Assembly: GCA_016699205.1 (NCBI GenBank)
Contig: CP064964.1
Span: forward strand, 120,001 to 152,000
Source of the DNA: Candidatus Saccharimonadota bacterium
Lineage (GTDB): Bacteria; Patescibacteriota; Patescibacteriia; 2-12-FULL-60-25
Direction: 5' to 3'
Length of the DNA stretch: 32,000 nucleotides
Shown here: piece by piece, positions 14,917 to 18,632 of the stretch
Layout of the letters: each line of letters starts with the position of its first letter
How positions within the stretch are numbered: the stretch's first letter is position 1
The notes under the pieces: generated by a model
Database searches by the model: none
What the model saw: the letters and a program-made list of their open reading frames with translations, nothing else
Told to the model about the DNA's origin: nothing
Position numbers and translations under genes: made by a program

Positions 14917-16284
14917 ATGAATGCGACGATTTTCAAAGCCTATGATATTCGCGGCCTCTCACCAGGAGAATTGGGTCCGGCAGAGGCTGGACGCATTGGG
15001 GCGGCTTTAGCACGCATCCATCGACCTAAGACCGTCGTGGTTGGACATGACATGCGCATAACCTCGCCGGAACTTGAAGAAACGCTCATACAAGGACTGA
15101 ATGCGCAGGGCGTGAATGTCGTACGTATCGGACTTTGTACAACGCCGATGTTTAATTTTGCGGTCGCAGAATCCAACGGCGAATATGATATGGGTGTCAT
15201 GGTTACTGCATCACACAATCCGGCGAAATATAATGGATTAAAAATCACAAAAGGCGATAACACGGCGATTGGGCAGGGGAGCGGCATGGAGGAATTGCGC
15301 GATCTCGCTTGTGGAGGTGAGCCGATTCCACAATCGAACATGCGCGGGACTGTCGAGAATGATGACGATCTGCTTGAGCGATACATCGAGGCGATCTGGT
15401 CGCGAAGCAAACTCGAGGGTGATTTATCGAGCTGGAAAATTGCGATCGATGCGGGGAATGGGATGGAGGGGTTGGTGCTGCCAAAGCTATCGAAGAAACT
15501 TGGCGCCGATGTTCATGAACTGTATTGGAAGCTTGATGGAAATTTTCCCAATCATGAAGCAAATCCGGTGAAGATCGAGACTCTCGCTGACTTACAGGAT
15601 GAAGTGAAGTCCAAAGGTTGCGTGTTAGGAGCGGCGTTTGATGGTGATGGCGATCGTGTTGGTTTTGTTGATGAGAAAGGCGAGGCGATTCCTGGAGATA
15701 TTCTGACCGCGCTTTTTGCGAAAGCCATTCTCTCTGAACAAAAGGGCGCAAAGGTTTTATATGACTTGCGATCGTCTAAGAGCGTCAAAGAAGTGATCGA
15801 AGAAGCGGGGGGAACGGCGGAAATGTGCAAAGTCGGTCACGCGGGCATCAAACGACAGATGCGTGAGACGGGTGCGGTGTTTGCAGGCGAACTCTCGATG
15901 CATTTTTACTTTGCGGAGTTTGCAAATTGTGAAGCTTCCGACTATGCGATGTTACTTCTCATCCGCCTGATGCTGCGCGAGGGAAAGCCGTTGTCGGAAA
16001 TCTGGAAACCGCTCGTGCGTTATGCGCATTCGGGCGAAATTAATTTCACGGTGAGCGACAGCAAAGCCGCGCTCGAAAAAGTCGCCTCACACTACACGCC
16101 TCACGCTACAAGTGTTTCCCATCTCGACGGCGTGCGCATCGACATGGGGGATTGGTGGTTTTCGTTGAGGGCGTCAAATACGGAGCCGTTGATTCGGTTG
16201 AATCTTGAGGCGAACACAAAAGAGATAATGGATAATAAACTTATTGAACTACGAACATGCTTGGCATCTTTGATTCAGGCGTAG
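14917..16284 (+). CDS. Phosphomannomutase / phosphoglucomutase (alpha-D-phosphohexomutase family)
   Basis: FKAYDIRG, VTASHNPAKYNGLK (active-site Ser loop), FDGDGDRV (Mg site), GELSMHFYF and RASNTEP. Confidence 0.92.
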   Translation: MNATIFKAYDIRGLSPGELGPAEAGRIGAALARIHRPKTVVVGHDMRITSPELEETLIQGLNAQGVNVVRIGLCTTPMFNFAVAESNGEYDMGVMVTASHNPAKYNGLKITKGDNTAIGQGSGMEELRDLACGGEPIPQSNMRGTVENDDDLLERYIEAIWSRSKLEGDLSSWKIAIDAGNGMEGLVLPKLSKKLGADVHELYWKLDGNFPNHEANPVKIETLADLQDEVKSKGCVLGAAFDGDGDRVGFVDEKGEAIPGDILTALFAKAILSEQKGAKVLYDLRSSKSVKEVIEEAGGTAEMCKVGHAGIKRQMRETGAVFAGELSMHFYFAEFANCEASDYAMLLLIRLMLREGKPLSEIWKPLVRYAHSGEINFTVSDSKAALEKVASHYTPHATSVSHLDGVRIDMGDWWFSLRASNTEPLIRLNLEANTKEIMDNKLIELRTCLASLIQA

Positions 16285-17015
16285 GAGGCCTAACGGTTGT
16301 AAAAGAGTTACTGCGCAGGCATCCGTCTGCGGGGTTTGTGTATCTTGGCGATACGGCGCGTACTCCATACGGAAACAAGTCTGCGGAGATGATTCAACGG
16401 TATGCCATTGAGGATGCGCGGTTTTTGGTAGGAAAAGGGGCGACGACGATTCTTGTCGCCTGTAACTCGGTGAGCGCGGTTGCGATGAATGAGCTTAAAA
16501 GCGAGTTTCCGAGTATCAAGTTCTTTGAGGTGATCACACCGGCGGTTTTGTCTGCTTCCGGGAAAAAGATCGGTGTGATTGGCACACGAGCAACAATTGG
16601 ATCGGGAGTTTATGAACGCCGCTTAAAGGAACGCGATTCTAACATCGAGGTTATTTCACAAGCGTGTCCGTTGTTTGTGCCGCTTGTAGAAGAGAATTGG
16701 ATCAATAAACCGGAGTCAAAACGTATTGCTCGAACGTATCTGGAGCCGATCCGACGGGAGCAAGTCGACTCGCTGATTCTTGGTTGTACGCATTATCCTT
16801 TGCTCGCCGAGGTGATCCGTGCGTCGTTGCAGAAACGCGTAAAGATCATTGACTCACCGGCGGCATTAGTCGACGTGGTTGAGAAGGAAGCGGGGAGCGA
16901 GATCGTCAATGGAGCACAGGAATATTATTTTACGGATCCGTCAAAATCTACGGACGCGATTGCTACACGGTGGCTCGGAAAAACCGTGAAGGGATTAAGC
17001 GCGAATCTTTTATAG
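16257..17015 (+). CDS. murI: Glutamate racemase
   Basis: LGIFDSGVGGLTV, ILVACNSVS (Cys 1) and LGCTHYPLL (Cys 2). Overlaps the upstream gene by 28 nt. Confidence 0.93.
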   Translation: MLGIFDSGVGGLTVVKELLRRHPSAGFVYLGDTARTPYGNKSAEMIQRYAIEDARFLVGKGATTILVACNSVSAVAMNELKSEFPSIKFFEVITPAVLSASGKKIGVIGTRATIGSGVYERRLKERDSNIEVISQACPLFVPLVEENWINKPESKRIARTYLEPIRREQVDSLILGCTHYPLLAEVIRASLQKRVKIIDSPAALVDVVEKEAGSEIVNGAQEYYFTDPSKSTDAIATRWLGKTVKGLSANLL

Positions 17016-17061
17016 AAAAAGAAAAGCGCCCCGACGAAGTCTTGAAGACTTGTCGGGGCGC
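17013..17061 (-). terminator. Strong intrinsic terminator for a minus-strand transcript; it also lies just after the murI stop
   Basis: GCGCCCCGAC(g)AAGTC-ttgaa-GACTTGTCGGGGCGC gives a 15-bp stem with one bulge. On the minus strand it is followed by TTTTCTTTTTC. There is no T run on the plus-strand side. Confidence 0.75.
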
Positions 17062-17424
17062 GAAGAGTAGCGATTCTTCGGATACGGTCATGCGGTTGGC
17101 GCTTCATGCGAGGGACTTCACGCACGTGGATCTCGCCTTTTTTCCGACGGGGGATTGCCGAATTTCGGATGATCCTTTCATCAGACCTTACTAGCATGGC
17201 TCGTGATCGCATCACTCGAGCAACCGGGGGAGGGTCGCGAGCGTCGCTGATCTTGGTCCATGCGTTCAGCCCTGAATCCAGAACGGTCCTTGATCCGGCA
17301 TGGGGGTCCCCTCGAGGGGTTATGAGCCCAATCTCGACTTTATTCCCCATTTAACCGGCCAACACAGGAGGTGATCCTGATTTGGCTTTTCCCGTCTGCT
17401 GCACAAACGTATCCGAAGAACCAA
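17062..17424 (-). ncRNA. Candidate structured non-coding RNA (~360 nt), class unidentified
   Basis: This 450-bp gap has no credible ORF. A 13-bp perfect long-range helix (17074-17086 with 17408-17420) extends to 16 bp through U-G and G-U pairs on the minus strand only. An upstream promoter and a downstream intrinsic terminator are both on the minus strand. Several internal hairpins are present (CAGGA-ucacc-UCCUG, CCCC-ucga-GGGG, AUGGGG...CCCCAU). Confidence 0.4.
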
Positions 17425-17429
17425 TATCG

Positions 17430-17457
17430 AGTTTACACAAAGCGTGAAAACCGTCAA
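17430..17457 (-). promoter_or_regulatory. Sigma70-like promoter (TTGACG-N16-TAAACT) for the candidate ncRNA
   Basis: The minus strand reads TTGACG (17457-17452), a 16-nt spacer, then TAAACT (17435-17430). The predicted TSS near 17423 coincides with the first base of the closing helix. Confidence 0.35.
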
Positions 17458-17467
17458 GATATGACCC

Positions 17468-18064
17468 ATGCTTCAAGTCCTCATCTTCTTGCTGGTTTTA
17501 TCGGTACTCGTCCTTGTCCACGAGGCCGGACATTACATCGCCGCTCGCATTTTTGGGGTAAAAGCCGAGGAATTTGGTTATGGATTCCCTCCGCGCGCCA
17601 TCGGTTTTGTCAAAACCGATAAAGGATGGAAGAAGGTAGCCGGCCGCGATCGATCTAGTTATAAAAACACGGTTTGGTCCCTTAACTGGCTGCCTTTGGG
17701 AGGTTTTGTGCGCTTGAAAGGCGAGGCTGGCGAGGGGACAGGAGACGCTGATTCATTTTTGACAAAGAAGGGCTGGCAGAAATTTATCATTCTGGCGGCT
17801 GGTGTTTGTATGAACTGGGTTTTAGCCATGTTCATTTTTACCATCGGCTTTGCTGTTGGCGTACCGGCCGAGGTTGATGCATTGCCACCTTCCGCGATTG
17901 TCAGCAATCAACATATTGAAATTGTCGAAGTTGTCTCCAAGAGTGCAGCTCAGAATGCCGGGCTTCAACAGGGCGACCAGATCGTCACGATTAATGGACA
18001 GGTTCCGAATAACGCAGAAGCTTCACGCGCGATACTGGCCGATCAAACGGAAAAAGGGTTTTGA
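17468..18064 (+). CDS. rseP: RIP zinc metalloprotease RseP (M50), N-terminal fragment ending at a frameshift-induced TGA
   Basis: VLVHEAGHYIAARIFG (HExxH), a TM segment, and the start of the PDZ domain (AAQNAGLQQGDQIVTINGQ). Confidence 0.9.
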   Translation: MLQVLIFLLVLSVLVLVHEAGHYIAARIFGVKAEEFGYGFPPRAIGFVKTDKGWKKVAGRDRSSYKNTVWSLNWLPLGGFVRLKGEAGEGTGDADSFLTKKGWQKFIILAAGVCMNWVLAMFIFTIGFAVGVPAEVDALPPSAIVSNQHIEIVEVVSKSAAQNAGLQQGDQIVTINGQVPNNAEASRAILADQTEKGF

Positions 18065-18632
18065 ATTAACATTGGAAATCAAACGCGATGGGACAATGCA
18101 GACGATTCAAGCCAAGCCTGAGTTTTTGGACGCGCTAGGAAAACCGGGTCTAGGAGTCGCGATTGCGAATATCGGGACGGTGCGTTTCCCATTACATCTT
18201 GCTGTTGTGCAAGGCGTGACTGTAACGGCGCAGTATACGTGGCTCATTATTAATGGATTCTTTAGCTTGATCGGATCTCTCTTTGGCGATCGCAAGCTTG
18301 CTGGTGAAGTTTCAGGTCCGATTGGCATTGCTGTATTAACAGGACATGTTGCGAGCCAGGGTTTTTGGGCACTGATGCAGTTTGCTGCATTGTTGTCGCT
18401 CAACTTAGCCGTCATTAACTTTTTGCCGATTCCAGCGCTGGATGGTGGACGTGCGCTTTTCGTCGTGGTGGAATCGTTACGACGGAAACGCAATAACCCG
18501 CGCTTTGAAGCAGCGATTCATCAGGCCGGATTTGTGGCGTTGATCATTCTTATCCTACTCGTCACCGCACAAGACATTGGTCGATACGGCGGCACGATCT
18601 GGAATGGCCTGAAGGGTATCATCGGTCTCTAA
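17850..18632 (+). CDS. rseP: RseP C-terminal fragment (real coding resumes near 18060 in the +1 frame)
   Basis: GFELTLEIKRDGTMQTIQAKPE (end of the PDZ domain), GPIGIA and LLSLNLAVINFLPIPALDGGRALF (M50 NxxPxxxLDG motif). Translation upstream of ~18056 in this frame is nonsense. Confidence 0.9.
   Translation: MLLAYRPRLMHCHLPRLSAINILKLSKLSPRVQLRMPGFNRATRSSRLMDRFRITQKLHARYWPIKRKKGFELTLEIKRDGTMQTIQAKPEFLDALGKPGLGVAIANIGTVRFPLHLAVVQGVTVTAQYTWLIINGFFSLIGSLFGDRKLAGEVSGPIGIAVLTGHVASQGFWALMQFAALLSLNLAVINFLPIPALDGGRALFVVVESLRRKRNNPRFEAAIHQAGFVALIILILLVTAQDIGRYGGTIWNGLKGIIGL

Follow-up and report, generated by a model that had tools for sequence, protein, structure and literature searches.

According to our sequence analysis, the gap between murI and an rseP-like gene in contig CP064964.1 very probably contains a single-copy minus-strand gene that has a sigma-70-type promoter, an intrinsic terminator and a structured RNA product of about 405 nucleotides (nt) that belongs to a new family. 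This gap lies in a stretch of 32,000 nt (positions 120,001–152,000 of the contig), hereafter the window, whose positions are used below unless a contig is named. The window belongs to a genome that consists of one contig of 1.08 Mb and is 97.9% complete. An earlier note on this DNA had proposed a minus-strand structured RNA gene with its own promoter and terminator; we find the same unit, with compensatory changes, in 13 further alleles. One arm of the predicted RNA ends in a loop that has the same sequence as the methionine tRNA anticodon loop. Taken as a whole, the proposal that the gene is real and that its product acts as a decoy or regulator of translation initiation is put forward tentatively. 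The gene and its RNA have the following features, from promoter to terminator:

17452–17457, minus strand: −35 box TTGACG of the RNA promoter
17430–17435, minus strand: −10 box TAAACT of the RNA promoter
17408–17423, minus strand: 5′ strand of the closing helix P1, UGGUUCUUCGGAUACG (17423–17408)
17401–17406, minus strand: 5′ strand of P2, UUGUGC (a weakly supported helix)
17391–17396, minus strand: 5′ strand of P3, GACGGG, which covaries
17358–17386, minus strand: P4 hairpin, whose loop (AUCACCUCCU here) varies among alleles and is often C-rich
17300–17350, minus strand: anticodon-like arm, made of P5, the A-rich internal loop AAUAAAG, P6, a 3-nt bulge and P7
17317–17329, minus strand: P7 hairpin, GGG-CUCAUAA-CCC
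17306–17311, minus strand: GGGGAC, part of the arm's 3′ internal loop and candidate 5′ partner in a pseudoknot
17157–17299, minus strand: variable multi-hairpin domain closed by GCCGGAU/AUUCGGC, diverse among alleles and missing in the short allele G001
17146–17151, minus strand: 3′ strand of P3, CCCGUC, with a conserved GCAAUCC junction ahead of it
17105–17126, minus strand: P8 hairpin with loop UGAAGUCCCU, of which GUCCCU (17116–17111) is the proposed 3′ half of the pseudoknot
17088–17093, minus strand: 3′ strand of P2, GCAUGA
17071–17086, minus strand: 3′ strand of P1, CGUAUCCGAAGAAUCG (17086–17071)
17015–17061, minus strand: intrinsic terminator, a 17-bp G+C-rich hairpin (17061–17026) followed by a U tract

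The intergenic gap spans 17016–17467 (452 bp) and separates two plus-strand genes. Fourteen alleles of the RNA were compared, all of them at the murI–rseP site: four come from the six species genomes of the genus and ten from metagenome or Logan contigs. G000 stands for this genome, the other G numbers for genomes and L089–L100 for metagenome or Logan contigs. Promoter, P1 and terminator are retained in all 14. The promoter named in the earlier note, TTGACG-N16-TAAACT, lies at 17457–17430 and is the sole sigma-70-like site found by a promoter scan of 16700–17800. Its −35 box is identical in every allele and its −10 region reads GTAAACT in 13 of them (GTAAATG in L099), which places the predicted transcription start at about 17424–17422. 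At the other end, the Rho-independent terminator is present as described, adjoins the murI stop codon and has its U tract on the minus strand only; its stem covaries in G001, G002 and L090 (ACGCCCGGAC.../...GUCCGGGCGU). The core from P1 to P1 measures 353 nt, and the RNA from predicted start to U tract about 405 nt. The locus thus shows what an independent small-RNA gene is predicted to show, namely its own promoter and Rho-independent terminator on one strand, conserved in relatives.

The minus-strand RNA folds at −176.4 kcal/mol, with z = −6.7 relative to dinucleotide shuffles (plus strand, z = −4.15), and z was −4.8 or lower in the seven other alleles tested. Minimum free energy is undecided on the strand, the opposite one being slightly better in G001, G002 and L099. 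The minus strand is fixed by the excess of G·U over A·C pairs together with the one-sided promoter and terminator. The tested helices contain 18 G·U against 5 A·C cells, and a hand table of three species gave 12 against 2, as the wobble pairs pointed out in the earlier note had suggested.

The alignment (A4) holds the 12 alleles that match the 5′ domain and was fitted to the model structure. In it, 92.4% of the cells are paired and 16 of the 20 tested pairs show double-sided changes, values that none of 500 column shuffles attained; shifting the partners by 1–3 columns brought pairing down to 29–61%. Compensatory changes were seen in P1, P3, P4, P5, P6 and the terminator, and those in the interior argue for selection acting on the folded product. 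P1, already noted as a closing helix of 13 Watson–Crick pairs with an extension, counts 16 bp (the 13 pairs plus U·G, G-C and G·U) and is found in all 14 alleles, with compensated variants in L095 (GGUACCUCGAUAGC/GCUAUCGAUGUACC), L089 (GGUUCCUCGAC/GUCGAGGGACC) and L099 (GGUCCUUCGGUUG/CGACUGAAGGACC). P3 covaries strongly, as GACGGG/CCCGUC, GAUUGG/CCAGUU, UGGUGU/ACACCA and CAGAUCGG/CCGAUCUG. In P4 (alignment helices 1 and 2), double changes occur in 7 of 9 pairs and the loop sequence is unconserved; in the arm (helices 3–5), 95–97% of the cells are paired and 9 of 11 pairs show double changes. P2 is weakly supported, with a conserved sequence, one-sided changes and some mismatches. Both internal pairings suggested earlier, GACGGG/CCCGUC and AUGGGG/CCCCAU, covary in relatives; the CCGG/CCGG extension that was to flank the latter is weakly supported, competes with P4 and is mismatched in G004. 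The junctions carry the conserved motifs AAAG, CCGGUUAG and GCAAAUCC.

A pseudoknot between the internal loop of the arm, GGGGA[C], and the loop of P8, [G]UCCC, is probable on the strength of the alleles, since the two segments are complementary in 12 of 12 and follow two compensatory patterns, GGAGA/UCUCC (L090 and L094) and GGGAC/GUCCC (G000, L096 and L100). Cognate pairings are modestly more stable than non-cognate ones, at −9.3 versus −7.8 kcal/mol.

We then compared the RNA with known classes. The Rfam comparison that the earlier note had called for returned no known family: with Rfam 15, nothing reached the gathering score anywhere in the window, and at E ≤ 10 the interval 16900–17600 gave just terminator-like noise. 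The resemblance to RNase P RNA suggested earlier was not upheld, as neither RF00010 nor RF00011 matches here and the genuine RNase P RNA lies at C1:573861–574312 (163.5 bits, E = 2.6e-53). Type A RNase P RNA does share a similar length, a P1 formed from both ends and the look-alike strings AAAGUC and GGGCUC, whereas the RNA described here has no P4 and no core of conserved regions CR-I to CR-V. The transfer-messenger RNA (tmRNA, RF00023) was found at C1:498602–499024 (82.6 bits). Neither signal recognition particle (SRP) RNA (RF00169 small, RF01854 large) nor 6S RNA (RF00013) gave a match at E ≤ 1 in the whole genome; in this lineage, the SRP RNA may have diverged too far to be recognized by the models or to pass the first filter of the search. 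As in the YrlA Y RNAs, the two ends form a long stem of partly conserved sequence below a variable upper part, which in YrlA includes a tRNA-like module. In YrlA, however, it is the acceptor, T and D arms that are imitated and not the anticodon arm, and the genome contains no match to the Ro/TROVE domain (PF05731), which was detected in the Deinococcus and Bacteroides controls. A T-box finds no Rfam match either, and on the minus strand no gene follows the terminator, just the antisense of murI. OLE (RF01071), GOLLD, HEARO, ROOL and raiA are likewise multi-domain, covarying, independently transcribed RNAs of more than 200 nt with a patchy or narrow range, but none of their models matches at E = 10, and the RNA described here is far rarer (14 alleles) and differs among alleles by whole modules. 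The copies of RNase P RNA and tmRNA elsewhere in the genome exclude these two classes, the lack of a Ro protein excludes a Y RNA, and the fact that the RNA is single-copy (its P1 sequence GGTTCTTCGG occurs once in 1.08 Mb) excludes a repeated mobile element. Full-text literature searches yielded no account of this RNA, and no Rfam model represents it. Of the earlier wording, a divergent or novel RNA, the second term stands and the first does not: that the gene is real and its RNA forms a new class or family is, jointly, highly probable.

On the evidence of the genomes compared, the family is real and confined to one genus-level clade of Candidatus Uhrbacteria, in the Candidate Phyla Radiation (CPR, Patescibacteria). 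BLAST in 60 relatives gave one full-length homologue, in G004 (73% identity, same site); another match, inside an RNase J gene, was due to chance. Synteny revealed two further forms in the genus: G001 has a short form without the central 140–170 nt, and G002 has the same promoter, P1 and terminator around an unrelated rod-like interior. No copy was seen in G003 or G005, of the same genus; in G005, which is 100% complete, glmM adjoins rseP and a different small unit is present. In the other genera of the family we examined 27 further loci; both genes were found in 19, none of which holds the RNA. Spacing between murI and rseP in relatives without the RNA is mostly 13–150 nt and often less than 100 nt, the two genes are probably co-transcribed, and the larger gaps of G016, G017 and G019 contain unrelated sequence. 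Those of G017 (L008 2271–2850, 579 nt) and G016 (L032 295–1290, 995 nt) apparently hold small open reading frames and a terminator.

Close relatives of murI in a large protein collection led to 12 contigs, of which ten carry alleles (L089–L096, L099 and L100) and one, L098, is cut off; L097, whose murI is 67% identical, has a 49-nt gap and no RNA. The RNA-bearing clade corresponds approximately to a murI identity of at least about 71%. Pattern scans of genome and metagenome contig collections gave real matches only in G001, G004 and identical copies, the other matches being coding sequence or tRNA. Covariance models of the 5′ domain (R1 and R2) gave no genuine match, either in 127 genomes from the family and order or in 151 from the class; their weak matches fell in coding regions (FtsK, PilM-like, glycosyltransferase, GreA) or tRNA genes. 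A family scan for TAAACT-N-GTTCTTCGG gave two extra matches, a terminator and a coding region, at a rate similar to that of the control.

Global pairwise identity of the RNAs is uninformative, and alleles were compared by shared 9-mers. The murI gene of L089 is nearest to that of G000 (87% identity), yet the RNA interiors of the two share no 9-mer; L089 shares eight 9-mers with L095, whose murI is about 71% identical to its own, and none with any other allele. Because RNA alleles are incongruent with the flanking genes, we suggest that they have been exchanged or replaced at the locus. The murI gene of G002 (L082, C14, about 800–1215) looks fragmented, its first 69 amino acids (aa) matching one frame and the remainder other frames; it may be a pseudogene or reflect poor assembly.

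To what the RNA might do, the arm offers the main clue. Its loop, CUCAUAA, is the anticodon loop of both methionine tRNAs of the genome (C1:86825–86901 and, for the initiator, C1:87632–87708), is retained in 11 of the 12 arm-bearing alleles (CUCAUUA in L093) and is the most conserved exposed element. P7 has a G-C pair at each position in 10–11 of 12 alleles, whereas P5 and P6 below it covary freely, so the sequence of loop and stem looks constrained. In 8–9 of the 12 the stem is GGG/CCC, as in canonical initiator tRNAs. No partner for CUCAUAA was found inside the RNA.

In the mechanism that we propose, the ends paired in P1 would enclose a branched core of P2, P3, P4, the P5-P6-P7 arm, the variable domain and P8. 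The RNA would work in trans as a stable scaffold presenting the CUCAUAA arm, most often with the three stem G-C pairs that mark canonical initiator tRNAs, and with the pseudoknot to the P8 loop probably bracing the base of the arm. A reader of methionine tRNA would bind the arm, be it the 30S P site with initiation factor 3 (IF3), methionyl-tRNA synthetase, or an anticodon-loop nuclease or modifying enzyme, and the RNA would thereby act as a decoy or regulator of translation initiation. We regard such a trans-acting scaffold with an initiator-like methionine anticodon arm as possible, if rather doubtful. A narrower version, in which the pseudoknot-braced arm docks in the 30S P site as an impostor of the initiator tRNA or is checked by IF3, making the RNA a protein-free plug or throttle of initiation in the ultra-small bacteria of the CPR, is quite unlikely. 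The three G-C pairs of P7 are nearer to the canonical initiator stem than is the host's own initiator tRNA. If this version were true, the rapid swapping of alleles between strains would suggest that the RNA takes part in conflict, perhaps by drawing off nucleases that attack the anticodon loop of tRNA-fMet.

Several observations weigh against this reading of the arm. Two of the 14 alleles (G002 and L099) lack it and keep promoter, P1 and terminator, so the arm is not what holds the locus together. Stem variants include GGC/GCC in L089, AGG/UCU in L096 and GUG/CCC, the stem of L094 is mismatched, and the loop of L093 has a U at position 37, where a purine is universal. The host's own initiator tRNA has the stem UGG/CCA and not GGG/CCC (11 of 13 nt are identical to the hairpin); P7 is therefore not a copy of the resident tRNA gene. 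Loops of 7 nt with a YUNR turn are also typical of the recognition loops of antisense RNAs. The RNA gene is unlinked to metG, infC, fmt or any tRNA-related gene. Finally, the alleles all belong to a single narrow clade, whose shared ancestry enters into the covariation counts, and A4 was fitted to its model.

The initiator tRNA itself does not differ among G000, G001, G002 and G004; G003 and G005, in which no copy of the RNA was seen, have the same stem type. In all six genomes of the genus (G000, C1:87632–87708), U29-A41 replaces the third G-C pair of its anticodon stem, which reads CAUGG or CCUGG / CCAUG or CCAGG; other members of the family have UGG, CGG or GGG. A link between the RNA and this unusual stem was rejected, as UGG/CCA is found in all six genomes with or without the RNA. 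Two further candidates were also abandoned: an anti-Shine–Dalgarno sequence as a family feature (GGAUCACCUCCU is present in the P4 loop here, and CCUCC is missing in many alleles, among them L093, L096 and L100), and a small plus-strand protein behind AGGAGG, whose frame is broken by an indel between G000 and G004.

Two known systems come closest to an arm of this kind. The E. coli thrS operator also presents a 7-nt loop equal to an anticodon loop on a tRNA-like stem, with a constrained loop above covarying lower helices. That operator acts in cis, in the 5′ leader of the threonyl-tRNA synthetase mRNA, where it overlaps the ribosome-binding site and is bound by the synthetase; the RNA described here, in contrast, is a stand-alone RNA of about 400 nt between murI and rseP, is not a leader and is unlinked to metG. 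Pseudoknot I of the dicistrovirus intergenic region (IGR) internal ribosome entry site (IRES) mimics an anticodon stem-loop in the P or A site; this element is viral, acts in cis and works in a eukaryotic setting. The likeness lies in an anticodon-stem-loop look-alike braced by a pseudoknot, which in the IRES engages the small subunit. Unlike the arm, the IRES mimics a codon–anticodon duplex and not a free loop.

Other explanations of the locus were weighed against the decoy or regulator. The RNA could be of a different kind, a ribozyme or an unknown ribonucleoprotein scaffold, with the likeness to an anticodon loop a coincidence. Its large, branched and probably pseudoknotted fold with conserved junction motifs, the two armless alleles and the precedent of OLE, GOLLD, ROOL and raiA, which exist without tRNA mimicry, fit this idea; yet the loop is the element of highest conservation among those exposed, a conserved 7-nt loop would equal one of about 44 anticodon loops by chance in roughly 0.3% of cases per loop, and no gene for a conserved partner protein adjoins the RNA, its neighbors being ordinary cell-envelope genes. 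We consider it fairly unlikely. A regulator acting by base pairing, in which CUCAUAA or other loops would seed pairing to mRNAs in trans or the RNA would act as a cis-antisense to read-through from murI into rseP, is unlikely. That the unit stands alone, between a promoter and a terminator of its own, would suit such a role, CUCAUAA fits the YUNR motif, and murI and rseP are probably co-transcribed where they lie 13–150 nt apart in relatives lacking the RNA. As the plus-strand reading of the terminator lacks a U tract, any read-through would be fully complementary to the RNA. Against this, complementarity to the loop extends only a few bases beyond AUG at the gene starts of the genome, with no extended match there or at any rRNA site; the C-rich loops able to pair with Shine–Dalgarno sequences are unconserved, the UCCC loop of P8 is probably used within the RNA, rseP apparently has its own promoter at the start codon, and a covarying multi-domain fold of about 350 nt exceeds the needs of a simple antisense RNA.

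It is also conceivable, if improbable, that the act of transcription is what matters: the unit would act as an insulator between murI and rseP and as a competitor of the rseP promoter, the fold serving only to stabilize or terminate the transcript. The −35 and −10 boxes of the RNA overlap a possible plus-strand promoter of rseP, TTTACA-N17-CAAGAT, and every allele retains promoter, P1 and terminator around a replaceable interior. The compensatory changes across that interior, a mark of selection on the folded product, and the conserved loop and junction sequences speak for more than this, and RNA-less relatives manage with a gap of 13–100 nt and a similar −10-like motif before rseP. A non-autonomous element of the miniature inverted-repeat transposable element (MITE) type, whose terminal repeats would imitate the closing helix, is very improbable and largely refuted. 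The 16-bp inverted repeat with its variable interior, the position of the insertion, where relatives have the two genes side by side, and the uncoupling of alleles from flanking-gene identity recall such an element. However, the earlier note's worry that the repeats might be the ends of a mobile insertion present in many copies is not borne out by a single-copy sequence whose P1 is unique in the genome; besides, every allele sits at one site, the compensatory and G·U changes in P1 fit RNA pairing and not transposase sites, and promoter and terminator, both conserved, lie outside the repeat. A size of 350–400 nt with a closing helix recalls RNase P RNA and tmRNA, and SRP and 6S RNA were the ones not detected at E ≤ 1. 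A divergent housekeeping RNA among these four is nevertheless extremely improbable. The first two are already refuted by their copies elsewhere, no Rfam model matches at E = 10, and absence from the complete G005 and from every genome outside the genus means that the RNA is not an essential housekeeping copy.

The CPR genomes are reduced and contain little non-coding DNA. That such a genome keeps a single-copy RNA gene of about 400 nt with compensatory changes indicates that the RNA is probably useful. To our knowledge, large intricate bacterial RNAs beyond the housekeeping set are rare, and each one characterized has revealed unexpected biochemistry. If the arm of the proposed decoy or regulator engages the ribosome, IF3, methionyl-tRNA synthetase or an anticodon nuclease, a novel means of regulating or protecting translation initiation would have come to light. 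Because the RNA is restricted to one genus-level clade, any finding can be generalized only to a limited extent. The organisms are uncultured, and the 14 alleles, which include natural variants without the arm or without the variable domain, provide a basis for work on structure and binding.

The genes flanking the RNA are as follows:

16257–17015, plus strand: murI, glutamate racemase, convergent with the RNA gene (Pfam PF01177, Asp_Glu_race, on orthologues)
17468–18632, plus strand: rseP-like M50 site-2 protease gene, divergent from the RNA gene (Pfam PF02163, Peptidase_M50, and PDZ on orthologues)

No Shine–Dalgarno sequence precedes rseP in any allele or in the approximately 25 genomes of the family examined (L012–L029 and L089–L100). 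The possible plus-strand promoter mentioned above coincides with both boxes of the RNA promoter and would start rseP at or beside its AUG. Relatives without the RNA have a TAnACT-like motif 6–8 nt ahead of the rseP AUG, and across the approximately 25 genomes a −10-like motif is found at this distance as TAGACT, GATACT or CAAGAT. These arrangements suggest that the rseP mRNA is leaderless across the family, and the overlap suggests that a putative rseP promoter competes with that of the RNA. In this genome, the rseP-like gene is broken into two overlapping frames, 17468–18064 (198 aa) and 17850–18632 (260 aa), while an intact protein of 387 aa is encoded in nine related contigs; either a frameshift or an assembly error accounts for the split. 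A slippery site near 18050 had been noted at the first reading of the sequence.

A second unit of about 150 nt, with a promoter-like site and a terminator (…GGUCACC(N)CC(N)GGUGGC-U tract), was observed in L092 at about 2260–2440, on the strand opposite to murI and between the RNA terminator and murI. In G005, which lacks the main RNA, a comparable unit is located upstream of rseP (L081 1288–1494, on the strand opposite to rseP). These units may represent another small-RNA family of the genus.

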